Shown here in pieces: positions 4,421-55,062 of a DNA stretch of 64,000 nucleotides. The DNA is from Candidatus Collierbacteria bacterium (GTDB taxonomy: Bacteria; Patescibacteriota; Microgenomatia; UBA1400; JACPES01): the NCBI GenBank assembly GCA_016183365.1, contig JACPES010000002.1, positions 12,779 to 76,778 of the forward strand, given 5' to 3'. The position numbers and the translations under genes are program-made. A model generated the notes under the pieces. That model ran no database searches. It was not told the DNA's origin and saw nothing but the letters and a program-made list of their open reading frames with translations. The first letter of the stretch is position 1. The number at the start of each line of letters is the position of its first letter.

Positions 4421-4565
4421 TTAGATTTTTTGAAGATAGATTTTTTTGAAATTTTAGATCTTGATATATTTGATTTCTTGAATTCTTGATTCAAGATATC
4501 AAGTTATCAATAATTCAAAATCAAAGATTTCCACCTTCCATCTTCAAGATATCGATTTTTATTGA
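4421..4565. mobile_element. MITE-like palindromic repeat, family A, copy 1 (cttgaagat ... atcttcaagat termini)
   Basis: Terminal inverted repeats and an internal ttgatttcttgaattcttgattcaagatatcaag. Four more copies at 6703-6852, 12329-12472, 30468-30622 and 36915-37050. Confidence 0.7.
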
Positions 4566-6702: not shown

Positions 6703-6852
6703 TTTATATTAGATATTTTGAGGATAGAAGATAAAAACTCTTGATTTTGAAATCTTGATTTCTTGATAACTTGATCAAATATTCAAAACATCCAGCATAT
6801 CAAGATCAAGAATCTCAAGAATATCTACTTTCAAGACATCTATATTTCTCCC
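6703..6852. mobile_element. MITE-like repeat, family A, copy 2
   Basis: ttgaggatagaag ... cttgatttcttgataacttgatcaaatattcaa ... atctactttcaagacatctat. Confidence 0.65.
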
Positions 6853-6877
6853 TCTTGACACTCGTGTATAATAAAAC

Positions 6878-7150
6878 CCAGCCCTACCAAAAGCGGTCTG
6901 GCAGGAAAGTTTTTTCCTACACAACTCTTTTGTCAAGGGTCCCGACCAAAAATCGGGATTCTCGACCCCGACCTAAAGTCGAGGGTCGGAAAGTCCAAGT
7001 GTTCGATACCCGTGGGTATCGGGCCAGGACACCCACCTATCAACAGCGGGGAAGAGTTTTCTGCATCAAGCGCTTTACTGGTAGGGTTTTTGTTGCTTCA
7101 GGAAGTTTAGATTATAATAGTTTCAACCGTTTCGTTCATCAGAAAAAATT
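6878..7150 (+). ncRNA. possible structured noncoding RNA or long leader upstream of tRNA-Thr; identity unknown
   Basis: An extended -10 (tgtataat at 6865-6872) is followed by about 270 nt that lack a convincing ORF and are rich in GC hairpins (cccgacc...ggtcgg; a GGAAAGTCC motif). Confidence 0.2.
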
Positions 7151-7151
7151 T

Positions 7152-7222
7152 GCCCTTCTAGCTCAACGGCAGAGCAACTGTTTTGTAAACAGTAGATCGG
7201 AGTCCGACTCTCCGGGAGGGCT
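7152..7222 (+). tRNA. tRNA-Thr (anticodon TGT)
   Basis: Hand fold: acceptor GCCCTTC/GGAGGGC; D arm GCTC-AACGGCA-GAGC; anticodon stem ACTGT/ACAGT with loop TTTGTAA; T arm CGGAG-TCCGACT-CTCCG. Confidence 0.75.
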
Positions 7223-7416
7223 CAATAAATATCGATATTTTAAAATATCGACACCGAGACAGTTAAAGGATCAAGAGATGTCAATACTTTTAAGTGATAG
7301 CATCGAAGTATTGATGTTTGAATTCTTAAGTTGAGAAAAGTCCGGGCTGGGATTTTTCTTAATCCTCAAGTTAAAAAAGCTTGATATACTATCAATGGGT
7401 TTTACTTGAAGTTTTT

Positions 7417-7501
7417 GCTGGGGTGGCGGAGCGGACAATCGCACCAGACTGTAAATCTGGCGCCTCACGGCTACCCAGGTTCGAATCCTGGCCCCAGCAC
7501 C
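7417..7501 (+). tRNA. tRNA-Tyr (anticodon GTA), type II with a long variable arm
   Basis: Acceptor GCTGGGG/CCCCAGC; anticodon stem CCAGA/TCTGG with loop CTGTAAA; T arm CCAGG-TTCGAAT-CCTGG; long variable arm. Confidence 0.85.
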
Positions 7502-11725: not shown

Positions 11726-12328
11726 ATGAAGCGAAGCGTTTTATTAATTTCCCTGACGGTCTCGTTTCTAACTCTGCTAACTGCTCTGCCGGTTTTGGCC
11801 CAAGAGGCGACTCCGACTTCTGCCGCCCGCCGCGATCGGATTGAAAACCGGGTAGGGGAGCGGCAGTCTAATATGGAAAAGCGTAAAGCCGAAATCCAAG
11901 CCAAGCGGACCGAAAAACAACAACAAATCGTGGCCCTGATGAAAGAGAAGTTGTCCGCCGTCATCGACCGCCTCAATAATGCCGCCGGCCGCCTGCGCGA
12001 GCACGTGGGTAAATTAAGAAACCGGGCCGCGGAAGCAGCTAAAAATCTGGGAGCGGATACGTCTAAAGTTGAAACCGCTTTGAAAGAAACCGAAAGGCAT
12101 ATCGGCTTGGCAGAAACCGCGATTGCCGATCTCAAATCCAAGATATCCGGGCTGGAATCTACCAGTACTCCTAAAGATGTGGCCCAGACTTTTAGAACTG
12201 GTGTTCAGGGAATTAAAGTTCATTTTGAAGACGCCAGAAAAAATTTAGTTAACGCAGTCAAGGCATTGAAAGACGCGGCCAAAGAGGTCCGTCCAATCAG
12301 GCCGGCAGAACCGACAGGAGGAGAATAA
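11726..12328 (+). CDS. secreted coiled-coil hypothetical protein
   Basis: Signal peptide MKRSVLLISLTVSFLTLLTALPVLAQE followed by long charged helical repeats. Locally higher GC. Confidence 0.5.
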   Translation: MKRSVLLISLTVSFLTLLTALPVLAQEATPTSAARRDRIENRVGERQSNMEKRKAEIQAKRTEKQQQIVALMKEKLSAVIDRLNNAAGRLREHVGKLRNRAAEAAKNLGADTSKVETALKETERHIGLAETAIADLKSKISGLESTSTPKDVAQTFRTGVQGIKVHFEDARKNLVNAVKALKDAAKEVRPIRPAEPTGGE

Positions 12329-12472
12329 ATAGATATTTTGAAGATGAAAAATAGAGGTTCTTGATCTCGAATTCTTGACGATTTGATCACTTGATCAAAT
12401 ATTCAAGAAATCAAGAATATCAAGATCAAAAATTTCAAGAACATCTATCTTCAAGAAATCTATGATGAAAGA
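12329..12472. mobile_element. MITE-like repeat, family A, copy 3
   Basis: atagatattttgaagatg ... cttgatcacttgatcaaatattcaag ... catctatcttcaagaaatctat. Confidence 0.65.
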
Positions 12473-17532: not shown

Positions 17533-18405
17533 TCACTCAATATCCAAATTCGGGAGGAGATGGGGGGCGTTATTACATGCCCAATCCTTTTGCGCCGGCG
17601 TCATGTCATTCCACCGATCGCGAACCGCGTATTCCGCGCTTCTTAAGTAATAGCCGGAACTTGTCACTACTGTATTTTTTCCGGCAATGACGTGCTCAAC
17701 AAATCCAGCCGGTTCAGTTGTTTTGTATGAGACTGTATCTGGAGGGAGGGAAGCCGCCTGCGCATGGCAATAATCAACGCTCTGTCTGATTTCGGCGGTG
17801 TAATCACCATGGACCGGAGCTTGCCGCACTGCCCGGTCGACGGTTGTGTCGATAGCCCGGTTGACCACCTGCGTCTCGATCTGTCTAGCCAGGGGAATAT
17901 TCGTTAGCGGTTGTTTATCTGTTATTAACCCCAGCGTTGCCAGAGCCTTCATGAAAAACCAGGGTTGAGGCATTTCAGTCTCGGATTGCGCATAAGCCAA
18001 AGCCGCTTCCTTTGGCAATTGAGCATCAGGTAAAGTATTAATTTCGGTTCTCGCGACAGGTGGTGAATCAGATCGGGGGTGGGTATTTGCCGCAATCGCG
18101 CGGACAGTGGCGGTTGGGAATCCGGCTGGACTGGTGGTTGCTTGAATTTCTACGCGAGCTGTGTCACCGATGGCCAAACCCATTGCTTGCCTCACATCGG
18201 TATAAACACGGTGGCGGGCGAAATGTTCCAAATCAGCCGCTTTATCGAGTAGATGTCTGGCTACATTCCCAGGAGCAGTTGCAGCCGCGGACCGGTAAGC
18301 ATTGGCTCTATCAATGAGGCCGGATATTTGCCTGGCTGCTGTTTGGCTGATGTCTGTCGGGTAGGTTCCAAAAGCGATTTTTTGGTCAACGTTGCCTCTT
18401 GCCAT
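17533..18405 (-). CDS. hypothetical protein (last gene of the GC-rich block)
   Basis: 290 aa with no recognisable domain. About 53% GC against roughly 40% in the flanks. Confidence 0.5.
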   Translation of the reverse strand: MARGNVDQKIAFGTYPTDISQTAARQISGLIDRANAYRSAAATAPGNVARHLLDKAADLEHFARHRVYTDVRQAMGLAIGDTARVEIQATTSPAGFPTATVRAIAANTHPRSDSPPVARTEINTLPDAQLPKEAALAYAQSETEMPQPWFFMKALATLGLITDKQPLTNIPLARQIETQVVNRAIDTTVDRAVRQAPVHGDYTAEIRQSVDYCHAQAASLPPDTVSYKTTEPAGFVEHVIAGKNTVVTSSGYYLRSAEYAVRDRWNDMTPAQKDWACNNAPHLLPNLDIE

Positions 18406-18407
18406 AA

Positions 18408-19277
18408 TTAATCCTCAAAGGTAAACGTTATTCCGCCGGATACGGAAACTTCGCTTGAGACAAAGGTTGATGAGGCGGCAACGACCCCTGGACCTGGCCC
18501 GCCGATAACACCAACGCCGTGTTGATAGATATGAATTGTTGGCGGAGATCCATCAAAGCTAACTCCAGCTCCGAGGTGTTGGACAGCTTGGGCGCGAGCA
18601 GTAATTTTTGGGTGAACGCCGGCGGTAATTTTCTGACCCATTAACTCGGTTTGTATTCGGCCCAGCAGATCGCCGAAAGATTGAGCGAATGTCTCCAGCA
18701 TGCGATCGGCGGCTTGCAGACCGGTTTGCAAATTAACGGCCATTTGTGTTTGAACCGCCGCGTCCAAAACAGACATGTTTGGGGTAATCCTGCTGGTTAT
18801 TGCAGCGAATGCATCTTGAAGTCGCGCTGATTCCGCCGGTTCCTGGACATCCGGGTACGGCTGGTCATGTTTGATAATAGCACCGGGAGTGACAGACGTA
18901 GGCGGAGCCGGGAAAGATCGACGAACAATGGCTTTTAGCGCCAGATCGCCGCCGCCGCTTTGGTAAGCATTGGTTAGCATTAGCATGGTTTCTGGTGTCC
19001 ACCTTTTGGTGTAATCGCCAGTGGTTTTGTCTCCGAATTGCCATAAGTCTGCTTCGGGAGAATGAGCGCCGATGCCGTCTCTAACTAAGAGGGAAACGGC
19101 ATGCAAGCGCTCCAAGACCTCTTTCTGACCTGGAGCTAAATCTCCATAATGAAGCGCGGCGTAAATTTCACGATGAATTTGATCATCGGGATTGAATAGC
19201 CTGTGAGTAATAGCATTGCCACGGCCGACAGCACCATCAGTCATTCCTCTGGTAAACTCACTAATATTAATGGTCAT
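18408..19277 (-). CDS. hypothetical protein (GC-rich block)
   Basis: 289 aa with a Gly-rich C-terminus. A 2-nt spacer separates it from the downstream gene. Confidence 0.5.
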   Translation of the reverse strand: MTINISEFTRGMTDGAVGRGNAITHRLFNPDDQIHREIYAALHYGDLAPGQKEVLERLHAVSLLVRDGIGAHSPEADLWQFGDKTTGDYTKRWTPETMLMLTNAYQSGGGDLALKAIVRRSFPAPPTSVTPGAIIKHDQPYPDVQEPAESARLQDAFAAITSRITPNMSVLDAAVQTQMAVNLQTGLQAADRMLETFAQSFGDLLGRIQTELMGQKITAGVHPKITARAQAVQHLGAGVSFDGSPPTIHIYQHGVGVIGGPGPGVVAASSTFVSSEVSVSGGITFTFED

Positions 19278-19382
19278 AACAGTGCTTTATTGTATCCAAA
19301 TTTAACTTATCAGTCAACCCCCCGCGGTATAATTTTATCGCCTTAACCGACATTAATTGTCAACATAGTTTTGCTGGATGAG

Positions 19383-20414
19383 CTAAGTGGTGGAGCTTAT
19401 TTGCCTTTTGCCCCGTCGAGTAAAGCGACTGAAGATAACCGTGGGAATGGTTCCTGCCAATAAGCCCATAAATCCTCCGGTAAGAGTATTTTGCCAAAAA
19501 GTTTCAGTAGTAATAGGATAACCATGTTGGAGGGAGAAATAGGCGTAAAGCAGTGCTCCGGCAGGAGTGGCGATCGCAACCGGGATAGCTGCATCCGGCA
19601 AAACTTCAGCTCCCCAACCAATGGCAGAATGGGGTAGAGAAATAACTACCCCTATAATTCTGGCCAGAACACTCCCCGAAGTATTAATGGCAGAGCCGAC
19701 GCCCCTATCTACCAATTCAGCCATACTGACCAAAGTCTGTTCTCCTATTGCCTCTGTCAACTTAATAGCTTCAACTAGAGCCACTCGAGGAAACACCATC
19801 GTTCTCCTGCCGGAATTTTCTACCTTGGCAACAAAGAGATTAGTCTCGGCTTGCATAGCAGGCAGTTCGGCGATGGCAATTTCTTTTCTGGCCTGCATGG
19901 CCGTAACGCCAGCGCACACGGTGCGTTTAATTCCGTCAGCCACTAGATCAAAGAGCTGATCTTGAGGCATACCTTCGGGGATTTGGATCACCCCTTGTTT
20001 TTTTAGGCCATCAGCCAATTGAGCGAAGGCGTCAAACCTGGCTAAAGTTACTGTCGTGGCGCGAGCGATTCTAGCGGGAGCGTCCTTGCCTCGAATATCT
20101 TCAAGAATCCGATAGAACAAAGCAGCTGCTATCTGCTCACCGCCTTCGACGCCCCCGAAAGCTCCACCCACAATAGTTGTCAGCGCTGACCCAAGGAGAG
20201 ACTCTGCTTGAAGAAAGATTTGGGAATATGAAGGTCTAATATTATCCGGTTCCAGAGTTTCCGTCAATAATTTTCTGCCTGGACTCATCGCGTCTCCGAC
20301 ACCGATTCCAGTTGTTGGTCCGGTTCGACCTTCTTGTTCGAAGAACATAAGCCTTGTTGATTTAACCCAAAACTCCGCTAAATCTAGCGGAGTTGATGCA
20401 CTAGTTGTTTCCAA
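19383..20414 (-). CDS. hypothetical membrane protein, paralog of 21103-22251
   Basis: It has a TTIVGGAFGGVEGG motif, matching TTAVGGAIGGYKGG in the paralog, and C-terminal TM helices. Confidence 0.55.
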   Translation of the reverse strand: METTSASTPLDLAEFWVKSTRLMFFEQEGRTGPTTGIGVGDAMSPGRKLLTETLEPDNIRPSYSQIFLQAESLLGSALTTIVGGAFGGVEGGEQIAAALFYRILEDIRGKDAPARIARATTVTLARFDAFAQLADGLKKQGVIQIPEGMPQDQLFDLVADGIKRTVCAGVTAMQARKEIAIAELPAMQAETNLFVAKVENSGRRTMVFPRVALVEAIKLTEAIGEQTLVSMAELVDRGVGSAINTSGSVLARIIGVVISLPHSAIGWGAEVLPDAAIPVAIATPAGALLYAYFSLQHGYPITTETFWQNTLTGGFMGLLAGTIPTVIFSRFTRRGKRQISSTT

Positions 20415-20426
20415 ATCTAGTTTGGA

Positions 20427-21083
20427 TTACTCCAGTGTATCATTTAGTAATCTCTCTTTCTCGTTAATGCCGATCATCCAGGCAAAACCGCCAATGGCAT
20501 AAATGGCATCAACCGCCAATCTTGCCGTCCCCAGGCCGATTAAGGCATCACAGACGATTAAACCTGGTCCGCCAAAACCCGCAGCCATCCTCGCGCCCTC
20601 TCTTACTGCCTGAACCCAGGGGTTAACCCTCTCAATGCGATGAGGAGCAAATTGAGCCTCCACATTTGCCTCTACCTGTCTTGCGACTAATTCCTCAATC
20701 GTCTCACCTTCCTCCAATCGAAGTTTGCCAGTTGCTTTCAACCCTGCTATTTTCTTTATGACTTCAGGTTCTACTCCTTGCTGGATCTGTTGACGCAATT
20801 GCGCATTCTTAGCCCTAACGGTTCTGTCATACCACTTGGAGCGTGTTAAACCAAAACTCTGTACAGCACCGCCTCCAAAGGCCAAAAATTCAATCAAAGC
20901 CGCCGGAACCCATTCGGCTAGATCAGTACTTAACGTAATCCCGGAGGCAACACCTGGTGCGGCCTCCGCATTTTTAGCGATCAGTGCCACAGCTAATCCG
21001 AAGAGTACTCCCCAGGCAGGAGTGGGAAGGCGAGACCCTCTCTCTTTGGCAGCGACAAACATTTTTTCTATATTTTCATTCAT
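20427..21083 (-). CDS. hypothetical membrane protein (GC-rich block)
   Basis: N-terminal TM helix (PAWGVLFGLAVALIA), an AFGGGAVQSFG motif and a hydrophobic C-terminus. Confidence 0.5.
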   Translation of the reverse strand: MNENIEKMFVAAKERGSRLPTPAWGVLFGLAVALIAKNAEAAPGVASGITLSTDLAEWVPAALIEFLAFGGGAVQSFGLTRSKWYDRTVRAKNAQLRQQIQQGVEPEVIKKIAGLKATGKLRLEEGETIEELVARQVEANVEAQFAPHRIERVNPWVQAVREGARMAAGFGGPGLIVCDALIGLGTARLAVDAIYAIGGFAWMIGINEKERLLNDTLE

Positions 21084-21102
21084 TTTTTCCTCCTTTGATT
21101 AA

Positions 21103-22251
21103 TTACTTTGTCTCTTCCGCATGATCAACGAGTCTAACTTCGCCTTCAACAATTTCCGGTTCATTTGCTTCAGAATTCTCTGTGAACCGTTTCCCATCGA
21201 AATAGGAAGAATTTCTCCGCCGATCCAACCAGGCAACAGCGGTTCCTATTGGAACGGCTATCATCAGACCAAGTACGCCAGAGAATCCTACAGTGAGTAA
21301 CTTTTCTCCAAGAGTGGCTGCGGGAATCAGACTGCCCGCGGCAATTAAAACGGAGGTGCCTACTGGAAAAAGCGCGAAGGCCGCCATCCCGGCGGCAGCT
21401 CCCGGAGTAATTTCTTCGGTGACTTCTTTAATGCCATCGGCAATTCCTTTGAACGGCCCAACGATTAAAGCGGCGGTTGTCCTTCCGGGAATTTCTGCTC
21501 CTACGGCCAAGGTTTGAGCCAGAGCCTCCATCATTCCCGGACCGATTTCCTTAGCTAATTGAACGGGAAGGCGACCAAAGATTTCAACAGCTGCTCCGAC
21601 AAAGGGTGCTACCGTTAATCTTCCTGCGGCTTCTGCCTGCAAAACCATGGTTTTTAACTCAATATCCAGAGCTTCCTGTTCAACTTTGGCCAGCCTTTTT
21701 TCTCCCCCGGCTTCTTGTTCCCGCAGGGTAGTAACAGCGTTCATGAAGCGGGCGGCCACGACGACGGCTTCTCCGGGAGCAGTTTCTTTTTCAAAAACGC
21801 CGAGCCGTTTTAGCTGTGTAATGAGCTCCATTGCTGATTGGGCGTTAAGTAGGGTATCACCCCATTCATAGACAGTTCGCCAGAGTTCGGCTCGGCCTCG
21901 GGTTTCAGTTAGGCCCATCTCTATTTCCTCCACGGTGCGCATCAGCCCGCCTTTATATCCGCCTATTGCCCCGCCAACTGCAGTTGTGGGCAAACTGGCC
22001 AAACCAGCGGCCACTTGCTGGACAAATTCTAAGGGATTAGTGCCAATTCTTTCGGTTAAGGCGTCAACAGCGGTTTTAACTGGAGTCGGGACAACTTCTC
22101 TTTGATTGACTAGGGAGATGGGGCCGTCTCCGATTAGTGGTGGTAAATCATGACGTTTTAGTTCTTCGAAGTCAACTTGGACAGAACTAACGACTACTGT
22201 CGATTCTGCTGGAACTGGTAATCCTGGTGATTTCTCTGGACTTAGACCCAT
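21103..22251 (-). CDS. hypothetical membrane protein, paralog of 19383-20414 (first gene of the block)
   Basis: 382 aa; soluble N-terminal domain with a Gly-rich motif and C-terminal TM helices. Confidence 0.55.
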   Translation of the reverse strand: MGLSPEKSPGLPVPAESTVVVSSVQVDFEELKRHDLPPLIGDGPISLVNQREVVPTPVKTAVDALTERIGTNPLEFVQQVAAGLASLPTTAVGGAIGGYKGGLMRTVEEIEMGLTETRGRAELWRTVYEWGDTLLNAQSAMELITQLKRLGVFEKETAPGEAVVVAARFMNAVTTLREQEAGGEKRLAKVEQEALDIELKTMVLQAEAAGRLTVAPFVGAAVEIFGRLPVQLAKEIGPGMMEALAQTLAVGAEIPGRTTAALIVGPFKGIADGIKEVTEEITPGAAAGMAAFALFPVGTSVLIAAGSLIPAATLGEKLLTVGFSGVLGLMIAVPIGTAVAWLDRRRNSSYFDGKRFTENSEANEPEIVEGEVRLVDHAEETK

Positions 22252-22472
22252 TTTAATCTTAATCTGGACAGGAAAATATTTGGGAAGAAAAATTTGTTAA
22301 GCTGATAATATCATTTCTCATTGTTATGTCAAGTTTCAGGTTATAATCGCCTTATGCCAGCCGGATTTAATTTAGCAAAGACCACAATTCTTCCAAACCT
22401 TAGCCAAATTCTAGCGGTCAATGGTTCTGATGGGGTGCCGGTTTCTAATCAGGCGGAACCTAATTAAAAACG

Positions 22473-22508
22473 TCAATACTTAAAAGCGATAGCTTTCAAG
22501 TATTGACA
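22473..22508. promoter_or_regulatory. palindromic putative operator gtcaatactt-N16-aagtattgac in the divergent promoter region
   Basis: gtcaatacttaaaagcgatagctttcaagtattgac. Related sites at 23368-23403 and 29292-29327 share the gcgatagc core. Confidence 0.45.
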
Positions 22509-22539
22509 TAATGATAAATTATCTGTACCATTTTTTTAA

Positions 22540-23388
22540 ATGGGAAGAGCTAAAGAAACCGCTCGGGTAATTTCTAAACTAACCGGCGAAATCGCCGTTA
22601 CAGCTCTGGATTTGGTAGTGCTTGCCGCAGCTGCCGCCGGCGGTTTCTTTTTATACGGCCCTAGTGGAAAAGATCTATATGTTGATTATAAAACCAAAAA
22701 AGCCCTGGCCGCAGCCGATCGTTTTTTTACCAAATGGAATCAATCTAATTTTCGTCGCGCGGTCGGTCGGGCAGCCGGGGAGGGGTTGATAAAACGGATT
22801 GCAGGTGGTTACGAGCTAACAGAAACCGGCCAGGAAAAATTAAGAGAATTGCTCCCGAATTACAAAAAACAGCGCCCCTGGGATGGCCGTTTATGGTTGA
22901 TAACTTATGATATTCCCGAAGATACAAAGGAGAAAAGAGAAAAATTTAGAAAATTCTTGAAAGAAATTGGTTGCCGCATGGTTCAGAAATCTGTCTGGCT
23001 GTCGCTGAAGGATCCTCATATCTGGTTAGTCGTCAGAATAAATTCTCTCCGTCTTCAGGGGAGGGTGATTATCTCCTGTTTGGGCAAAGATGGGAGTTTA
23101 GGAGATGAAGGGGTTACCAAAATGGTTTCTCGGATATTTGACCTGAAGAAAATAAATAGAGAGTATCGACGCTGGGTAAAACATGCTTTGGTAACTGATA
23201 AAGCAGGCATTTTCCATCACGGCTTGCGTTTTTTGGCGATTTTAAGAGACGACTCCGTGGTTCCCAAGGAATTGTTGCCTGTCGATTGGATGGGGGAGCA
23301 AGCTCTGAAAATATTTGAAGATAAATTCAAACCTCAAATGGGTCTGATAGGAAACTATTTGGTTAACGTCAATACTTCAAAGCGATAG
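22540..23388 (+). CDS. PaaX-family-like transcriptional regulator with an N-terminal membrane anchor
   Basis: RPWDGRLWLITYDIPEDTKEKREKFRKFLKEIGCRMVQKSVWLS matches the PaaX C-terminal signature (W.G.W....IPE...R......L...G......SVW.S). Preceded by a winged-helix-like region, with a TM helix at residues 20-42. Confidence 0.5.
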   Translation: MGRAKETARVISKLTGEIAVTALDLVVLAAAAAGGFFLYGPSGKDLYVDYKTKKALAAADRFFTKWNQSNFRRAVGRAAGEGLIKRIAGGYELTETGQEKLRELLPNYKKQRPWDGRLWLITYDIPEDTKEKREKFRKFLKEIGCRMVQKSVWLSLKDPHIWLVVRINSLRLQGRVIISCLGKDGSLGDEGVTKMVSRIFDLKKINREYRRWVKHALVTDKAGIFHHGLRFLAILRDDSVVPKELLPVDWMGEQALKIFEDKFKPQMGLIGNYLVNVNTSKR

Positions 23389-23403
23389 CAACAGAGTATT
23401 GAC
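23368..23403. promoter_or_regulatory. second copy of the gtcaatactt ... agtattgac palindrome, just past the regulator's stop codon
   Basis: gtcaatacttcaaagcgatagcaacagagtattgac. Confidence 0.4.
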
Positions 23404-23671
23404 TACTAATGTAAAAAATCAATATAAGTCAATCAAATATAAGTCAATCAAAATTTAGGGATAGAATTTTGTTATCTCTTCGGCCAGTTAGGCGGATGTG
23501 TCTTAACAACAGCTATCGATAAAAAGATTTATGTGAGTTACTCTGTCAAAGAAGTAGTTGACCAAATAGATCGACTCCAACACGAACTGGTTCGTGAAGC
23601 GATGAAGATAATGGGAATAAAGTCGGGAGAGGTGTGGATATTTAGGTTGGTTTGACCGGTCAAGATGACAT

Positions 23672-24961
23672 TTACTGCGGGCACTGGTAATTGGAAGGTT
23701 GACAGGTTGCGTTGCAGCATTTGCTGCTTTGGCATTGGGAGTTGGAACTACAACTTTGTCCATTGGGTTTTCTAGTTGGGGTGGGAGTGGGCGTGGGCAG
23801 CGGGTTTCCGCAACAGTAACCCCCGGAAGGGACACAAGTCCCCGAGGCGGTATATTTTCCCAACTGGTAGCAACTGACTCCGTAATAACACTGCCCTGTA
23901 CAAGTTGAAGCCGGAGTGGGAGTGGAAGTAGGTCTCGGTGTGGGAGTGGAAGTAGGACGAGGAGTAGGTGTGGGAGTAGGCTTTTTGGTCGGTGTGGGAG
24001 TAGGCTTTTTGGTGGGTGTGGGAGTGGAAGTAGGTCTCGGTGTGGGAGTAGGGGTGGGTGTGCCAATGGTAAATCTATTACTTGCTGAAACAGGGACTAA
24101 TTGACTATCTTGCGTGAAAGAATTGGAGGCATAAACACTCCAGTAATATTCGTGACCACGGATGAGATCGAACACATTACACTCGATTGCTTCTTCAGCG
24201 GGGGGGTTGGAGTAAAATCTTTGTTCGCATGTAGTTCTGGTTGTGCCGCTGGTTACGTCATACAACTGATAATAATGGCTAACAGGCCTATAACAATTGT
24301 GCCAGATAATTCGTGAATTAAGATGTACATCTTGCACGTCAGGGGGAAATTTGGTGTAGTTCGGCGGGTAATCAAGGATAATTTCCGGTTTCTGTCCTGG
24401 ACAGGCGTTAACACTGAAATTTCTGGTTTCAGAAAGTAATTCCAGGTAGGTTCTACTACTGGCTTTCACTTGCCACGAGTATTCGTTGCCCCAAGAAACC
24501 GGTACTGAACACTCAAATTCCCAAACTGATTTTCCAAACTCGTATGATTCACAGGATGGGATGGTAGTACCGGTGGTTAAGTTGGAAAAGACGATATAGT
24601 ATCTTGTCTCTTCCGAGCACTCCTTAATATCAAAAGATCCGGTAAGTTTAACCATACTTGTATCATCGGGAAAAGAGAAATTATCTGCCGGGGTAGAGAG
24701 AGTAATTTCAGGGAAGTCTCCAGTACAGAGCGGTATAGCTGGTATTGGCATAATTGATTTGGAGGCCAAGGAATAGATTCTTTGGGTATTTTGAAAAAGA
24801 AATATTCCTATTACCAGACCAATTGCCAGACCAACACCGAGTCGAAACAGGACAGTTAGATTTCGAGAATCGAGATTTTTTTTGAGTTTTTTGAGATTAT
24901 TTTGAAATTGCTTCATTAGCATCAGTATTATTAGTGTTTCACTTGGCGACATGAATGTCAA
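23672..24961 (-). CDS. cell-surface protein: signal anchor, beta-rich domains, Pro/Thr linker and a Cys-rich C-terminal module
   Basis: N-terminal TM helix ([22 protein letters not shown]), a [23 protein letters not shown]... linker, and a C-terminal cluster of about 18 Cys. Confidence 0.55.
23905..24062. repeat. tandem repeats that encode the Pro/Thr-rich linker
   Basis: Repeated ggtgtgggagtggaagtaggtctc units. Confidence 0.6.
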
Positions 24962-28102: not shown

Positions 28103-29173
28103 TTAAATCACTACATCATGGGGAAGGCTTTCTTTCCATCCGGCCGGAGTGACGCGGATAAATTGGGCGTTGGCCTGAAGTTCCCGAAGATTTTTGGCTC
28201 CGCAGTAGCTTAAGCCGGAGCGCAGCCCGCCCAGATAACGTTCTATCACTTTCTCTACCGGCCCGCGACAGGGGATCAGAGCTTCTACGCCTTCGACTCT
28301 TGACCATTGATCGGCTATACTTTTGCCGTTACTTCCGCCTAATTTAAGACGGTGATTGGTAGCTCCCATAGTGGAGGAACCGCGGAAATGCTTGTATTTC
28401 TGCCCATTCCGGATCACGATTCCCCCCGGGGTTTCGTCACAGCCGGCAAAAATATTTCCTCCCATGATAGCGGTGGCCCCCGCTGCCAATGCTTTGACGG
28501 CATCGCCGGGTTGTTTAATACCGCCATCAGCCACCAATCCGATTTTCCGGCGGCGGAATTTTGCAATTGCGGCGGCGGCAGATTGAATGGCAGTAAGCTG
28601 CGGAACTCCGGCTCCGGCAATAATTCTGGTGGTGCAAGCCGACCCGGGCCCAACTCCGACTTTGATGGCGTCAGCCCCGGCCGCAATCAAAAATTCGGCT
28701 CCGGCGGCGGTGGCAATATTACCGGCTAAGATAGGAATTTTAGGAAATCTCTTTTTGACGGTTGTGACGGCTGCGGCGACAAACAGTGAGTGGCCGTGAG
28801 CCGCGTCAACCACTATCAAATCGGCTCCGGCAGCGATCACAGCTTGAACTCGTTCTATTAATCCGTTGGAAATGCCTACGGCGGCGGCTACCGGCAAACG
28901 ACCAGGTTTAGCTGATTTTACCCGGGCGACTTCGGCGGCCTCATTTTCCGGGGACTGAAATTGATGAATGACCCCCATTCCTCCCAATTTGGCCAAGACT
29001 GTGGCCATTTGAAAACCAGTGACAGTATCCATATTAGCGGACAAAAATGGAGCCGGCAGTTGCAGGGCCGGGGTAATCCAGCCGGTGGTATCGGCTTCGG
29101 ATCGGGACCGCAAGGGTGTCAGTTTCGGCACCAGCAAAACATCGTCATATGATAAACCCAGGGGAATATCCAC
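28103..29173 (-). CDS. IMP dehydrogenase / GMP reductase family protein without CBS domains
   Basis: [17 protein letters not shown] ... SANMDTVTG ... [11 protein letters not shown] is TIM-barrel IMPDH-like. Confidence 0.7.
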
Positions 29174-29291: not shown

Positions 29292-29327
29292 GTCAATACT
29301 TCATTGCTATAGCATTAAAGTATTGAC
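29292..29327. promoter_or_regulatory. third copy of the gtcaatact ... agtattgac palindrome, upstream of mreB
   Basis: gtcaatacttcattgctatagcattaaagtattgac. Confidence 0.4.
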
Positions 29328-29375: not shown

Positions 29376-29403
29376 GAATTCAATTATTTAAATAATTGAA
29401 GTA
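29376..29403. terminator. perfect palindrome ttcaattatttaaataattgaa just 3' of mreB; possible bidirectional terminator or binding site
   Basis: Identical palindromes at 34794-34817 and 53617-53640, each just 3' of a gene end. Confidence 0.4.
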
Positions 29404-29408
29404 TTTAT

Positions 29409-30464
29409 TTACCTCAACCCGCCAACTACCTTTACCCGGTTTAATAATTCCGGATTTTCCAGGACGACGGCGCAGCCGCGGACGACTGTTTCCATGGGAT
29501 TTTCCGCTAGCCACACCGGCATTTTTATCTGATCGGCTAGCAATTTTGTCAGCCCCTTGAGTTGCGATCCGCCCCCGGTCATAATTAAACCATGTTTAAT
29601 CAGGTCGCTAATTAATTCCGGCGGGGTTTCTTCAATGGTTTCGCTAACGGCGTAAACTATCTGATTGACAACTTGCGATAAGGCTTCCCTGACTTCATTG
29701 GAAGAAAATTTAACCGATTTTGGCAATCCGGTTTCCAGGTCGCGGCCGCGAGCGACGAAGACCAAATTCTTTTCTTCTTTGTCAATCGGAGCCGCAGAGC
29801 CTATCTTAATTTTCATTTCTTCAGCGGTATTTTCTCCGATAATGAGGCCATATTTTGATCGTGAAAAACCGACCAGTGAGTCGGTCATTTCTTCTCCGGC
29901 CACCCGTAAAGATTTATTAACGACTATTCCTCCTAAAGAAATAACAGCTATTTCAGTGGTGCCGCCGCCGATATCGACGATAATATGTCCGGAAGCTTCG
30001 GTTACCGGAATTTTGGATCCGATAGCCGAAGCCATAGGTTCTTCCACCAAAAAAGCCTCTCGGGCTCCGGCGCTTAAAGCGGCTTGCTGGACTGCCCGGC
30101 GTTCAACCTCGGTTACTCCGGACGGAATTCCGACCGCGACTCTGGGGCGGGGGATTTTAGGAAACCAAGACGAGCCGGTATGGATAACTTTTATCCAGTG
30201 TTTCAGCATGGCGGCGGTAGCGTCAAAATCAGCGATTACTCCGCCCCGGAGGGGTTTGATGGCTTCGATCGTCGCCGGAGTTTTTCCCAGCATTTTTTTG
30301 GCCTCTTCGCCGACAGCTAGGACAGCTTTGCCTTTTTTGGCCCGGGCGACCACCGAGGGCTGGCGAATGACGATCCCTTTGCCGCGGACATGGATCAAGG
30401 TGTTGGCGGTTCCCAAATCGATGCCGACGTCGTGGGTGATGAGACCTAATAACTTACTAATCAT
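29409..30464 (-). CDS. mreB: rod-shape-determining protein MreB
   Basis: IGIDLGTANTLIHVRGKGIV ... actin-like ATPase motifs. Confidence 0.9.
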   Translation of the reverse strand: MISKLLGLITHDVGIDLGTANTLIHVRGKGIVIRQPSVVARAKKGKAVLAVGEEAKKMLGKTPATIEAIKPLRGGVIADFDATAAMLKHWIKVIHTGSSWFPKIPRPRVAVGIPSGVTEVERRAVQQAALSAGAREAFLVEEPMASAIGSKIPVTEASGHIIVDIGGGTTEIAVISLGGIVVNKSLRVAGEEMTDSLVGFSRSKYGLIIGENTAEEMKIKIGSAAPIDKEEKNLVFVARGRDLETGLPKSVKFSSNEVREALSQVVNQIVYAVSETIEETPPELISDLIKHGLIMTGGGSQLKGLTKLLADQIKMPVWLAENPMETVVRGCAVVLENPELLNRVKVVGGLR

Positions 30465-30467
30465 AGT

Positions 30468-30622
30468 TACATTTAGATTTCTTGAAGATGGATGTCCTCG
30501 AGGTTCTTGAATTTGACGCCTTGATTTTTTGATTACTTGATCAATTAGTCAAATTATCAAGAATTCAAGATCAAGAATATCCACTTTCCATCTTCAAGAT
30601 ATCTAGTTTGAATTCTATCAAA
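30468..30622. mobile_element. MITE-like repeat, family A, copy 4
   Basis: tagatttcttgaagatgg ... cttgattttttgattacttgatcaat ... ccatcttcaagatatctag. Confidence 0.65.
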
Positions 30623-30654
30623 GATGATAGATTTATCCTACTAGCATTTTTGTC

Positions 30655-30812
30655 CTATTTATGTAATATTGTGAGATAGAGAATAATTTTCAATTCTCAA
30701 TTTACAATAAATTTACAATGAATCAATACTTAAATTTTCAAACGTTTGAAAATTAAAATATTGAAAATTCAATGAAAATTGTAAATTGTAAATTAATTCC
30801 AAACTGATATTA
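30655..30812. repeat. AT-rich palindromic repeat, family B, copy 2
   Basis: ttttcaattctcaatttacaat ... ttgaaaatt ... aaattgtaaattgtaaatt. Confidence 0.6.
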
Positions 30813-30818
30813 ATAAAG

Positions 30819-34682: not shown

Positions 34683-34922
34683 CCAGAATAGCGAAATCCG
34701 CGTTTCCACCGAGAACTATATAGATTCCGAGTAATCGCTGTAAATCTTAGAAGAAAATAGGGGAAGCCATTGCCTTCTGGCGGAAAAGCTTTACTTCAAT
34801 TATTTAAATAATTGAAGTGTTTTTCTGGAAGTGCCAACGTCCCGACTTCTCCAATTAACTCTGATCTTAAGATGACTCTCTTGGTGATGCCTTCCTAGGC
34901 GAAGCGATATGATCTGGTAATT

Positions 34923-35720: not shown

Positions 35721-36917
35721 ATGACTATCGATGATCTGAAGAAAAAAATCAAGAAGTTAGGGTTAGAGATTGACGGGGATAACGGCCGGGTGCTGATTGA
35801 GTGGAAGAAGGTTCCGTTTGTCGAGGCCGATCGGCCTTATTGGGCGGGGTTATCCTCAATAGACGGAGTCGGCCCGAATACTTTGCCGCTTCTGGTTTCG
35901 TGTTTTGGATCGGCTGAAAAGGTGTTGTCGGCGGATAAGCAATTATTGCAACAGGCGGGGTTGCCCGAGAGGGTTGCCGGAAGTATTATCGGATTTTCCG
36001 GCCGCAGAAATATTAGCCTTTGGTTTGATAAAGCTTTGCGCCCCGAACCCGATATTAATTTATCTTTTATGGTGCCTAAAGATGAGGAATTTCCGGAGAG
36101 GTTAATGACGATGACCGGAGCCCCAAGCCATTTGTGGGTTTGGGGTGATAAAAAAATACTAAATCAGAAGCGGATAGTGGCGGTGGTGGGCACCAGAAAA
36201 ATTACCCCATATGGCCGGAGGGTGACTGAAGATTTAGCCGAGGCGCTGGCGATCCGTGAAATGACGGTGGTTTCCGGCTTAATGTACGGAGTGGATGAAA
36301 CAGCTCAAAGAGCGGCGCTGAAAAATAGAGGGAAAGTAATCGGGGTTTGGGCCGGAGGGTTAACCCGGAAATCTTTTGGCAGCCGGTCCCGGTTGGCTTA
36401 CGAAATAGTTTCAAATAAAGGCGCGGTAGTCTCGGAATTTTCATTCGATAGATATCCGTTTAAAGGCACATTTCCTGCTCGGAATCGGATCGTTTCCGGG
36501 TTGGCCGCCGGAGTGGTGATTACTGAAGCGGCGGTAAAATCCGGCAGTTTAATTACCGCAGATTGCGCTTTGGATCAGGGAAAGCCGGTGGGAGCGGTTC
36601 CCGGGCCGATAACCAGCCGATTGTCGGAAGGCACCAACGAATTATTGAAAAACGGAGCCGCGCCTATCACCAATGTTGTCGATATTCTTGAGATGTGCGG
36701 TTTTACCTCTAAGGATCTTGGCGCGCCGATCAGTTATCTGTCCAAAAATGAAACAGAAAAACGGATTCTCGAGTTTCTGTCAGATCAAAATATGACGATT
36801 GATGATTTAGTCAGGATGTCATCAACGCCTATTTCTGAAGTTTCCGAAACTTTAACCTCATTGGAGTTGTCCGGAGCGGTCGGACAAGTAGGAGAAGAGT
36901 GGAGGAAAATATTCTAG
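35721..36917 (+). CDS. dprA: DNA-processing protein DprA (Smf)
   Basis: VVGTRKITPYGRRVTEDLAEALA ... VVSGLMYGVDETAQRAAL Rossmann-like DprA core. Confidence 0.85.
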   Translation: MTIDDLKKKIKKLGLEIDGDNGRVLIEWKKVPFVEADRPYWAGLSSIDGVGPNTLPLLVSCFGSAEKVLSADKQLLQQAGLPERVAGSIIGFSGRRNISLWFDKALRPEPDINLSFMVPKDEEFPERLMTMTGAPSHLWVWGDKKILNQKRIVAVVGTRKITPYGRRVTEDLAEALAIREMTVVSGLMYGVDETAQRAALKNRGKVIGVWAGGLTRKSFGSRSRLAYEIVSNKGAVVSEFSFDRYPFKGTFPARNRIVSGLAAGVVITEAAVKSGSLITADCALDQGKPVGAVPGPITSRLSEGTNELLKNGAAPITNVVDILEMCGFTSKDLGAPISYLSKNETEKRILEFLSDQNMTIDDLVRMSSTPISEVSETLTSLELSGAVGQVGEEWRKIF

Positions 36918-37050
36918 AGATCTTGAAGATGGAAAATGGACATTCTCGAGATTGAATTTTTGATGTTTTGAAATTTTGATCAAGATATCTAAGGCATCAA
37001 GATATCAAATTCAAGGGTATCAAGGATGTCTATCCTCAAGAAATCTATTA
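36915..37050. mobile_element. MITE-like repeat, family A, copy 5
   Basis: tagagatcttgaagatgg ... ttgatcaagatatc ... ctatcctcaagaaatctat. Confidence 0.65.
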
Positions 37051-41087: not shown

Positions 41088-41158
41088 ACAATGTTAATAA
41101 AAGTCTACGATCGTAAGAAAGTATTAACATTTGTTTTGTTGTGAAGTTAGTTTAGAAT

Positions 41159-41668
41159 ATGACAGATATTGAATTAATGCGCCGGGCGGCCGAAATTGCC
41201 GGAAATACCAAATGCTGGATCGGAATCGGATGCGTGATTGCTAAAGACGGACAGATTATTTCAGAGGCTTGGAATGAAACGTTGAAAGGGGAGGAATACT
41301 GTCTGAAATTTCGAAATCGTGAAGTCAAAAAAGGCCCGCTCCCGCTCGGCGAGGCCGGGCCTTATCAAAACAGAGGCTGCGTTCGCCATGATCTAGGACT
41401 TTCACAAGGAAAAGAAATCGAAAAAGCTTGTTCCGTCCATGCCGAAGTTAACGTTATCTCCAAAGCCGCTCGGCAGGGTATTAAAGTCGAAGGCGCCACA
41501 ATGTTTGTAACTAGTTTTCCCTGTTTAATTTGCATGCGTTCCATTATCCCCGCCGGGATAAAAAAAGTAATATATATGAATGATTTTTATAAGCCGCACC
41601 ATTTAGAATTATTTAAAAAAAACAGAGTTGAAGTTAAACAAATTCCTGAAAATATAGTTTGGAAATAG
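41159..41668 (+). CDS. dCMP / deoxycytidylate deaminase
   Basis: CSVHAEVNVI ... SFPCLICMRSI are the zinc-binding HAE and PCxxC motifs. Confidence 0.8.
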   Translation: MTDIELMRRAAEIAGNTKCWIGIGCVIAKDGQIISEAWNETLKGEEYCLKFRNREVKKGPLPLGEAGPYQNRGCVRHDLGLSQGKEIEKACSVHAEVNVISKAARQGIKVEGATMFVTSFPCLICMRSIIPAGIKKVIYMNDFYKPHHLELFKKNRVEVKQIPENIVWK

Positions 41669-53597: not shown

Positions 53598-53622
53598 TCT
53601 ATTAACCCGAGAAAAACTTCAA

Positions 53623-55062
53623 TTATTTAAATAATTGAAGTTTTTGAAATGCTAGGCGTTTTTTATCCCAGAATTTTCCGCGGCGGCAGAGATTAGAGAT
53701 ATCCGATTTGTTTTCTAGCAGCGTCTCGACCACGATCTCTAAAAAAATCGTGTTTTGAGATCCCTTGACTAAGATTATTTCTCCGCCGGAGATAAATTCG
53801 TGCTTCTCAATTATGGAGATTTGTCTGGCAGAGCCGGATCTCGCTCCGCGAGACGATCCTGCCAATAAAAACTTGGCCGCTTCTCCGGCAGTCAAAAACC
53901 ATTCGACCGGCAGTTTCGACTGTTTGATTATCGGTAGAGCGTATTGTTTCATCAATGGTCCGACGAGGACTATTTTATCCGCGGTTTTCACCGCTACCTC
54001 AGCTATTTTTTCGTGTTCTATTTTAGCCTGCGAACCCAGTTCGCGCATGTCCCCCAAAACCGCGATTTTGGTTTTATTTCCTCCAATATTTTGAAGCATT
54101 TTCAGACTGCCGATTACCGTTTCCCGCGAGGCGTTATAAGAAGAATCAATGATGGCGGTATTTTTAATTCCCGGAAAAATCCAACCGCGCCCCGATGGTA
54201 GTTTGAATCCTGCCGAGATTTTTTCGGCTATGGCTTGAGGATCTTGACCCAAACAAATTCCGGTGGCGAAAGCCGCCGATAAAGTGAATCCGTAAAATTC
54301 CGGCAAAATCATATTTTTTAATGAAATTTGATATTCCCGTTGTTTAAATGAAAGTAATACCTCTGTTTGAGAAAGCGAAGGAATAACGTTTAAAATTTTA
54401 ACATCGGCTGCCGGCGATTTTCCAAAGGTTAAAGTTCTTGCTCCAGCTGATTTCGGTTTCAGTGAATTTATTTCCGGTTGATCGGCGTTTAAAATAGCCC
54501 ATTGCAAATTTTGATTTTCGGTTATAAGTTTTCCCTTCTCTGCGGCGATGGACTCTATTAAGGTCAGACATTTCCGTACGACCAGGTCTGACCTTTCAAA
54601 CTGTTCTGTATGTACCGGCAAAACGTTTAAAATTACAGCTATATCCGGTTTTAAGATTGTCAGCAAATAGCCCATGTTTTTGGGCGAAGTCGGTTCGTCG
54701 ATGCCCATTTCGACGAGATAACAATCGAAAGAATTGCTAATTGCTGATTGCTGATTGTTAATTGTTTTAATAGCTTGAATTGGCGCCAATGCGAGGATGC
54801 GTAGCCAGTCAAAAATAGGATGAACCGACTCGCCGAAATGAAGGCCGAGAATGTCGGCCGGAATGCCGGATTCGGAATTGGCTTTTTCGGCAACTTTAAG
54901 ATTTTTAAATTTTAGTTTTAATACCGGCGCGATTGCGTCTATGGCGCTGGATTTTCCGGCCGAACCGGTGATTCCGACAATAAAAGGATTGCTTTTCTTA
55001 AGCGCAAACAAGGCCCAAAATCTAAGCCACCATAAAATCGGCCAACGAAAAATGCGTTTCAT
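53623..55062 (-). CDS. murF: Mur ligase family protein (MurF-like UDP-MurNAc-peptide D-Ala-D-Ala ligase)
   Basis: IVGITGSAGKSS P-loop ... NSESGIPADILGL. Carries an in-frame NQQSAIS repeat insertion. Confidence 0.65.
   Translation of the reverse strand: MKRIFRWPILWWLRFWALFALKKSNPFIVGITGSAGKSSAIDAIAPVLKLKFKNLKVAEKANSESGIPADILGLHFGESVHPIFDWLRILALAPIQAIKTINNQQSAISNSFDCYLVEMGIDEPTSPKNMGYLLTILKPDIAVILNVLPVHTEQFERSDLVVRKCLTLIESIAAEKGKLITENQNLQWAILNADQPEINSLKPKSAGARTLTFGKSPAADVKILNVIPSLSQTEVLLSFKQREYQISLKNMILPEFYGFTLSAAFATGICLGQDPQAIAEKISAGFKLPSGRGWIFPGIKNTAIIDSSYNASRETVIGSLKMLQNIGGNKTKIAVLGDMRELGSQAKIEHEKIAEVAVKTADKIVLVGPLMKQYALPIIKQSKLPVEWFLTAGEAAKFLLAGSSRGARSGSARQISIIEKHEFISGGEIILVKGSQNTIFLEIVVETLLENKSDISNLCRRGKFWDKKRLAFQKLQLFK

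Follow-up and report, generated by a model that had tools for sequence, protein, structure and literature searches.

Predicted operators on either side of a PaaX-like/Cas2-like regulator gene in Candidatus Collierbacteria

Why should a regulator gene of a Collierbacteria genome lie between two copies of one 36-nt palindrome, when further copies occur elsewhere on the same contig? To our knowledge, how CPR/Patescibacteria regulate transcription is almost entirely uncharacterized. In the 64-kb stretch of DNA analysed here (the window), the palindrome is present in five copies (Table 1). We consider these copies, with a probability of roughly 0.7 on the comparative sequence evidence, to be operators of the PaaX-like/Cas2-like protein encoded at 22540-23388.

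Copies of the palindrome in the window

The initial annotation had reported three 36-nt sites with perfect outer arms, two of them bracketing a PaaX-like gene. All three are present and belong to a larger set of five. The positions given for two of them (23368-23403 and 29292-29327) are exact, whereas the remaining one (given as 22473-22508) had been placed 1 nt too far to the right. The central core, given as gc(g/t)atagc, reads G[CT][GT]ATAGC, its second position being either C or T. The outer arms, GTCAATACT and AGTATTGAC, are perfect in sites 1, 2 and 3, which align as GTCAATACTT-N4-G[CT][GT]ATAGC-N4-[AG]AGTATTGAC, and an extended form of the palindrome can be written AAnTGTCAATACTT-N4-RCnnnnGY-N4-AAGTATTGACAnTT. 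The bracketing of the PaaX-like gene also holds: 32 nt separate site 1 from the ATG of this gene, whose TAG stop codon lies inside site 2. Allowing up to 3 mismatches, the arm pattern matches the window 4 times, compared with 0.01 matches expected from 100 dinucleotide shuffles. Furthermore, a position matrix trained on 14 same-type sites from other genomes, with the window sites excluded, ranked sites 0, 1, 2 and 3 at the top (27.9-54.9 bits) and added site 5 as the fifth copy, at 18.3 bits versus a maximum of -6.4 in 10 shuffles. Since four sites were found against 0.01 expected, and since a matrix built from other genomes recovers them, the motif is clearly non-random. The fifth copy begins 5 nt past the stop codon of the HIT-domain gene, and its right arm (TTAACA) is located 30 nt ahead of the ATG of the deaminase gene.

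Table 1. Palindromic sites, genes and predicted promoter discussed in the text (window coordinates)
Feature	Position	Strand	Sequence or domain features	Location and proposed role
Site 0	7280-7315		one arm mismatch; core GTGATAGC	spacer between tRNA-Thr (7152-7223) and tRNA-Tyr (7417-7501)
Site 1	22472-22507		GTCAATACTT-AAAA-GCGATAGC-TTTC-AAGTATTGAC	putative operator for autoregulation; right arm doubles as the -35 hexamer in the predicted promoter of the PaaX-like gene
Predicted sigma-70-type promoter of the PaaX-like gene	22503-22531	+	TTGACA-17-TACCAT; 10/12 consensus matches	prediction from consensus match only
PaaX-like/Cas2-like regulator gene	22540-23388	+	282 aa; N-terminal winged helix, Cas2-like middle domain, PaaX_C-like C-terminal domain	
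Site 2	23368-23403			spans the last 7 codons and stop of the PaaX-like gene; convergent junction; proposed second operator
IMPDH/GMP-reductase-family gene	28103-29173	-	assigned by Pfam; GTG start	possible target or insulated neighbour of site 3
Site 3	29292-29327		core GCTATAGC	between the mreB stop (29409) and the IMPDH-like start (29173)
mreB	29409-30464	-	Pfam MreB_Mbl, 422 bits	
Site 5	41093-41128		variant arms GTTAATA../..TATTAAC; core ACGATCGT	between the HIT-domain gene and the cytidine/dCMP deaminase gene
Cytidine/dCMP deaminase-family gene	41159-41668	+		candidate target, suggested by position only: site 5 overlaps the putative -35

A palindrome of this length could be recognized as double-stranded DNA or could act once transcribed. 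In the latter case the sites would form hairpins serving as bidirectional terminators or as stabilisers of 3' ends, insulating the gene, and their similarity would be incidental or the product of gene conversion. Indeed, they fold stably as RNA (-13.8 to -18.9 kcal/mol, z-scores of -4 to -10), as is expected of any palindrome, several are located at 3' ends or convergent junctions, and an A-tract, stem, T-tract shape is seen in some lineages. However, among 18 aligned sites the arm sequence is invariant while the inner positions are unpaired in 13-14 of the 18, indicating that interior pairing is not maintained, and covariation does not rise above that of shuffled alignments. The 4-nt spacers differ between copies, leaving only the arms and core in common. 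Where an intrinsic terminator has a GC-rich stem followed by a U-tract, these stems are AT-rich, their interior is unpaired and no U-tract recurs consistently. The terminator scan of the window remained at background level, with 11 found versus 11.2 expected, and its single overlap with the motif was the minus strand of site 1, flagged as terminator-like. In addition, Rfam 15 gave no match in the window at the gathering threshold and only chance-level matches around the sites at E<=1. An RNA role also fits poorly with the upstream copies, placed at the -35 or between the -35 and -10 and hence mostly untranscribed, and generic terminators give no cause for lineage-specific sequences matched across one gene family. 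We regard such a role as very unlikely. The invariant arms, the unpaired interior, the background number of terminators and the lack of an Rfam match together favour recognition of a double-stranded DNA sequence over a conserved hairpin.

A PaaX-family protein that keeps a Cas2 motif

The PaaX-like gene is present as a single copy in the window. Its product matches Pfam PF20803 (PaaX_M, the Cas2-like central domain) with 45 bits for a cut-off of 24, a match also recorded for 56 of 56 homologues, while PF08223 (PaaX_C) reaches 21.5 bits in the window protein, for a cut-off of 22, and is found among the recorded matches of most homologues. When compared with PDB, the family profile retrieved Rv0674 (3kfw, 1.6e-8) and E. 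coli PaaX (8a39, 4.2e-8) over positions 66-265, an alignment spanning the winged helix as well as the middle and C-terminal domains, and Cas2 (SSO1404) at 7e-4. An AlphaFold2 model (pLDDT 72.6) gave the same order in Foldseek, with 8a39 (3e-6) and 3kfw (9e-6) as best matches followed by many Cas2 structures. By profile and predicted fold, the regulator is thus a distant member of the PaaX family, in which a winged helix, a Cas2-like middle domain and a helical C-terminal domain follow one another as in E. coli PaaX. The relation to E. coli PaaX is nevertheless remote. The model for PaaX proper (TIGR02277, equivalog) scores 42 bits, far below its cut-off of 264.55, and paa catabolic genes are absent from the vicinity of the CPR-family gene, the neighbours examined being def, Wzy_C, IMPDH-like, mreB and genes of unknown function. 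The family itself is large, with at least 187 clusters at 50% identity (E<=1e-30).

A second difference from E. coli PaaX concerns the middle domain. The CPR proteins keep the N-terminal signature of Cas2, YDI..R..R..Q.SVW, with Y123, D124, R133, R137, Q149 and S151 invariant in the family, whereas alignments show that the YDI..R..R motif is lost in both E. coli PaaX and Rv0674. Residues 118-154 score 35 bits with TIGR01573 (cas2), above its cut-off of 24.5. In NCBI, the orthologues (including P0019 and P0039) carry the name 'CRISPR-associated endonuclease Cas2', because the first ~38 residues of the middle domain pass the cut-off of the cas2 model. This label looks like a misannotation of a PaaX-family regulator, since neither a CRISPR array nor cas1 lies alongside. 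The likeness to CRISPR/Cas2 lies in the partly palindromic repeats of ~36 nt and in the Cas2-type beta-alpha-beta motif of the protein, but the sites form no regular array with unique spacers, adjacent ones being separated by only 6-18 nt and grouped in twos or threes at most, and the protein carries wHTH and PaaX_C-like domains in addition. A CRISPR origin of the sites was accordingly rejected: no repeat array is present, and the Pfam labels given to the called genes of L023 and L024 include no cas1 family. The database label 'Cas2' would thereby be corrected for these proteins. The retained catalytic-type residues (Y123, D124, R133 and R137) could also mean that the protein nicks, cleaves or processes the palindromes, an activity that we consider highly doubtful. 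By the same reading, and with just as little likelihood, the flanking pair and the dispersed copies would constitute a domesticated REP/RAYT-like or homing-like system of CPR bacteria, previously unrecognised, and the protein could stand as an evolutionary intermediate between Cas2 and PaaX-type regulators.

Palindromes around homologous genes in CPR bacteria

Thirty family members were aligned and used to scan metagenomes, which yielded 80 loci with homologues 28-79% identical, 60 of them distinct after dereplication. In their flanks the usual layout is a palindrome of ~36-46 nt just upstream of the gene and a second copy at or just past the stop codon. When the two flanks were counted as sharing a long palindrome if their best local alignment scored at least 36, this was the case in 37 of the 60 dereplicated loci, compared with 4 of 256 control genes taken from these loci. 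The arms of the palindrome vary by lineage, while its centre is usually CGRYCG and often GCGGCCGC. Of 63 upstream flanks, 37 contain a palindrome centred on CGRYCG (at least 13 paired positions out of 22), as do 38 of the 66 downstream flanks, and 27 of the 60 loci have one on both sides; elsewhere, only 20 of 668 CGRYCG occurrences are such palindromes. Position and conservation thus support a functional attachment of the palindromes to the PaaX-like gene family. The core does not speak for the operator model throughout: in Collierbacteria-type sites it has decayed to GCGATAGC, GCTATAGC or CCTCCAGT, although site 5 keeps the family-typical CGATCG.

The arms also appear to follow the recognition helix of the protein. 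Loci with a common helix have common arms and loci with different helices have different ones: FRRAVGR occurs with GTCAATA, FRRALANS with GACTATAAC, NFDEEKIKRAFY with AACGTCTG, and GIDKE.VKRAFWK with CTTCC..GGAAG. Such co-variation is what a protein/site pair would be predicted to show, with the limit that the correlation is confounded by phylogeny, related genomes sharing both helix and arms. The family would in this way yield dozens of predicted regulator/operator pairs with differing specificities, that is, a natural 'specificity table' of recognition-helix variants against arm sequences.

Closer relatives show how the bracket is inherited. An exact-arm scan used one genome per species, a set that lacks the window's own genome, so its copy number is an estimate; it found 6 perfect sites over four contigs of one Candidatus Collierbacteria MAG (JACRNH01) and one further site in another Patescibacteria MAG, and about 10 of its 16 matches are scattered singles in unrelated phyla that look like chance. 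A relaxed scan of Collierbacteria loci gave 11 sites having the same arms and differing 8-nt centres, among them ACTGGAGT, GCAGGAGC, CCTCCAGT, GCGACAGC, GCTATAGC and ACGATCGT. Contig JACRNH010000002 is syntenic with the window, sharing the order paaX-like, def, Wzy_C, mreB, with Wzy_C 59% identical. Its PaaX-like orthologue (locus L023), 47% identical to the window protein, is preceded by two sites, of which the nearer lies 33 nt from the ATG, and followed by one 17 nt past the stop, all with the same arms, and a 76%-identical orthologue has two sites on each side. Since the bracket recurs around a 47%-identical orthologue in a syntenic contig, it is inherited and not a local accident. A mobile cassette is disfavoured on the same ground, the gene having stayed in conserved synteny at this level of protein identity. 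The variant form of site 5 is also found in this Collierbacteria MAG, at L007 5578-5613. In another contig of the MAG (JACRNH010000009, L011 6088-7899), three copies of the motif delimit a vapB-vapC pair (MazE-like antitoxin and PIN toxin) and an adjacent 212-aa gene, so genes besides the regulator can also sit between two sites.

The same layout brings to mind the REP/RAYT systems, in which one gene is flanked by a lineage-specific palindrome that is also found intergenically, sometimes as doublets. By analogy, the product of the flanked gene would spread or maintain the palindromes as dispersed repeats, the flanking copies would be the 'ends' of an element, and the Cas2-like domain would act as a nuclease on hairpin or cruciform DNA. 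A single-copy gene between cognate palindromes, with extra intergenic copies, is what such a system would present, and the palindrome sequences are indeed lineage-specific. Some copies form doublets, in L021, L026 and L007, and the doublet upstream of the L026 gene can be aligned with the downstream one over 104 nt, spacer included, a hint of copying or gene conversion. The six invariant residues matching the N-terminal motif of Cas2 are likewise compatible with a nuclease. However, REP sequences are many near-identical dispersed copies, whereas the 64 kb of the window contain 5 copies, in which spacers and cores vary. Copy numbers are as low in other lineages, with 2-4 per 8-20 kb and few cognate copies beyond the flanking pair (0-2 per 8-20 kb); L023 has only its 3 gene-flanking copies in 20.8 kb. 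That the arms and core are kept while the spacers differ fits selection on binding positions better than recent replication, and vertical inheritance in conserved synteny at 47% identity, as well as the promoter hexamers built into the upstream copies, do not point to a spreading repeat either. Moreover, Pfam and NCBIfam give only PaaX and Cas2 for the protein, and no transposase-type or HUH/Y1 (IS200/IS605-like) domain. Altogether, we consider a REP/RAYT-like origin unlikely, though slightly less so than an RNA-level role.

Promoter overlap, operator model and neighbouring genes

In the window, the ATG of the PaaX-like gene begins 8 nt beyond the TACCAT hexamer of its predicted promoter, whose -35 box is formed by the right arm of site 1. 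Across the family loci, the centres of the upstream palindromes fall at two preferred distances from the start codon (~24-26 and ~40-49 nt). Where the upstream palindrome is centred 23-26 nt from the start, 7 of 8 upstream copies have TTGAC abutting the core on its left, with a -10-like hexamer in the right arm, and TTGAC is found there in 0 of 8 downstream copies. Where it is centred 40-50 nt from the start, the class of the window gene, TTGAY is present in the right arm of 8 of 13 upstream and 2 of 13 downstream copies. Since promoter hexamers are almost confined to the upstream copies, these would be operators laid over the core promoter, and we take the arms and core, common to upstream and downstream copies, to be the binding determinants. 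One point counts against the operator model here: the arms of the Collierbacteria lineage contain TTGACA, and their conservation could partly reflect promoter function. The sequence of a -10 hexamer, a short gap and a start codon is also seen for the L023 orthologue, the IMPDH-like gene and the deaminase gene. In these predicted promoters the -10 hexamers lie 5-8 nt from the starts (22526-22540; 29182-29173 on the minus strand; 41148-41161; L023 9986-10003), leaving no room for an RBS, which suggests that leaderless or nearly leaderless mRNAs are common in this organism.

The presence of TTGACA raises a further possibility, namely that the palindrome is a back-to-back promoter module with outward TTGACA boxes, or the site of some other global DNA-binding protein, its adjacency to the PaaX-like gene being coincidental. 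Both arms do read outward TTGACA in most Collierbacteria-type sites, and in the window a suitably spaced, plausible -10 accompanies two of the sites. Most arm-proximal flanks, on the other hand, have no -10, as read directly at sites 0, 2 and 3, and in other lineages the bracket is still there with arms unrelated to TTGACA. A coincidental neighbourhood is also difficult to reconcile with the association to one gene family (37/60 loci against 4/256 controls), and we judge this explanation the least probable of those considered. A pure promoter element in particular was rejected, most arms lacking a -10 partner and arms elsewhere being other than TTGACA.

The closest known behaviour with which to compare the operator model is that of E. 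coli PaaX, which recognizes TGATTC-N27-GAATCA and acts by occlusion as the repressor of its own promoter, Px (PMC9493321). The likeness to the present sites, GTCAAT-N24-ATTGAC, is one of architecture only, with two short inverted arms ~25-27 bp apart, and repression of its own promoter by occlusion is proposed here from the overlap of site 1. Two features set the CPR family apart: its sites have a conserved centre of CGRYCG type, and its genes have a second predicted operator conserved at the 3' end. We know of no PaaX report describing such a 3'-end operator. In the literature on PaaX in connection with CPR, Cas2 or Rv0674, we did not find the arrangement described; the searchable literature is incomplete, and its novelty is accordingly unproven.

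In the proposed model, a protein dimer would read the two outer arms, ~26 bp apart, with its wHTH domains, while contacts to the centre of the palindrome would come from a conserved region of the protein. At site 1, which covers the -35 box of its own gene, the bound protein would block RNA polymerase and repress its own transcription, as the position of the site and its family-wide conservation suggest. Simple promoter occlusion cannot cover all copies, since about half of the known same-type sites are located away from promoters, those at window site 2, L011 6874 and L007 5578/5629 lying at convergent junctions and site 3 some 135 nt ahead of the predicted IMPDH transcription start. Site 2, at the 3' end, would be a further operator retained solely as a binding site. 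It may cooperate with site 1 and loop out the ~0.9-kb gene, or the protein bound to it may act as a roadblock, shielding the gene from transcription that arrives convergently or by read-through. Repressors that loop DNA between two operators are established in the lac, gal and deo systems. There, as predicted here, two cognate operators lie hundreds of base pairs apart with one of them over a promoter, but the pair discussed here encloses the whole gene of the regulator itself (~0.9 kb) and looping is hypothetical. A gene-bracketing operator pair kept across a family, the CGRYCG centre and the retained Cas2 motif would be the unusual features of this system. The conserved layout, with a regulator gene enclosed by two of its own predicted operators, points to looping or roadblock insulation as a possible means of control in compact genomes.

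Immediately past site 2, the convergent spacer contains AATATAAGTCAATCAA twice as a tandem direct repeat (23424-23455). The convergent gene beyond it (23672-24961, minus strand) encodes a 429-aa protein with no Pfam match and with internal tandem repeats of 12/24 nt (23766-24082). Five of the six listed public contigs with the PaaX-like gene break ~440 nt into the 3' end of this convergent gene, near window position 23943, within or beside these repeats.

The other three copies of the palindrome may mark additional targets or boundaries: one at the deaminase promoter (41.1 kb), one at the junction of mreB and the IMPDH-like gene, and one in the spacer that separates tRNA-Thr from tRNA-Tyr. The initial annotation had proposed that the palindromes are operators of the PaaX-like protein, and comparatively this proposal is well supported by the conserved bracket, the arms that track the helix and the promoter overlap. 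It had also placed site 3 about 80 nt upstream of the mreB start and suggested that the regulator might link a GC-rich module to mreB expression; neither part of this link is supported. With mreB on the minus strand, site 3 falls 81 nt downstream of the mreB stop codon, and the matrix scan of the mreB upstream region (30465-30818) detected only a lone half-site with a score of -21; mreB was therefore rejected as a target. Regulation of the GC-rich module is not supported: the module has its own strong predicted promoter (11/12 matches, 22332-22305) ~140 nt from site 1, and its first gene, whose product has 382 aa, is without a counterpart beside the orthologous regulator gene of the syntenic Collierbacteria contig. 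As for the IMPDH-like gene, site 3 is located ~118 nt upstream of its GTG start, ~80 nt upstream of its predicted promoter (29210-29182, minus strand) and ~135 nt upstream of its predicted transcription start. By its position, this gene is possibly regulated via site 3, or it may be simply an insulated neighbour. Judged likewise by position, the deaminase promoter is the most convincing target among the three additional window sites. Genes adjacent to the sites include IMPDH-like, deaminase, HIT, NUDIX, SDR and AMP-binding enzyme genes, vapBC and tRNAs; among them, a common function shows a weak flavour of nucleotide metabolism that is not convincing.

Several other elements surround these genes. 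The GC-rich module (17533-22251) comprises five minus-strand ORFs with a G+C content of 0.47-0.53 versus ~0.42. None of the five has a Pfam match recorded in the matching public contig L001, nor did the 382-aa ORF in the Pfam scan, and the block may be an acquired island. A repeat family of ~90-135 nt with short periodic motifs of TTGAT/TCAAG type is found at 4422-4559, 6710-6843, 12327-12463, 30474-30608 and 36914-37048; one copy lies directly upstream of the mreB start and is distinct from the palindrome. An AT-rich palindrome, ACTTCAATTATTTAAATAATTGAAGT, occurs three times (29377-29406, 34793-34822 and 53616-53645). Its first copy, immediately past the mreB stop, forms a weak hairpin (-5.6 kcal/mol) and may be the mreB terminator. 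Other short palindrome families (D6, D12, D13 and D20) are also dispersed in the window. Finally, the stretch 6860-7100, between a repeat element and tRNA-Thr, is GC-rich and hairpin-rich. The TTG ORF overlying it (6771-7334, 187 aa) has no Pfam match and Rfam gave only chance-level hits, and the stretch itself may be an unannotated structured RNA.
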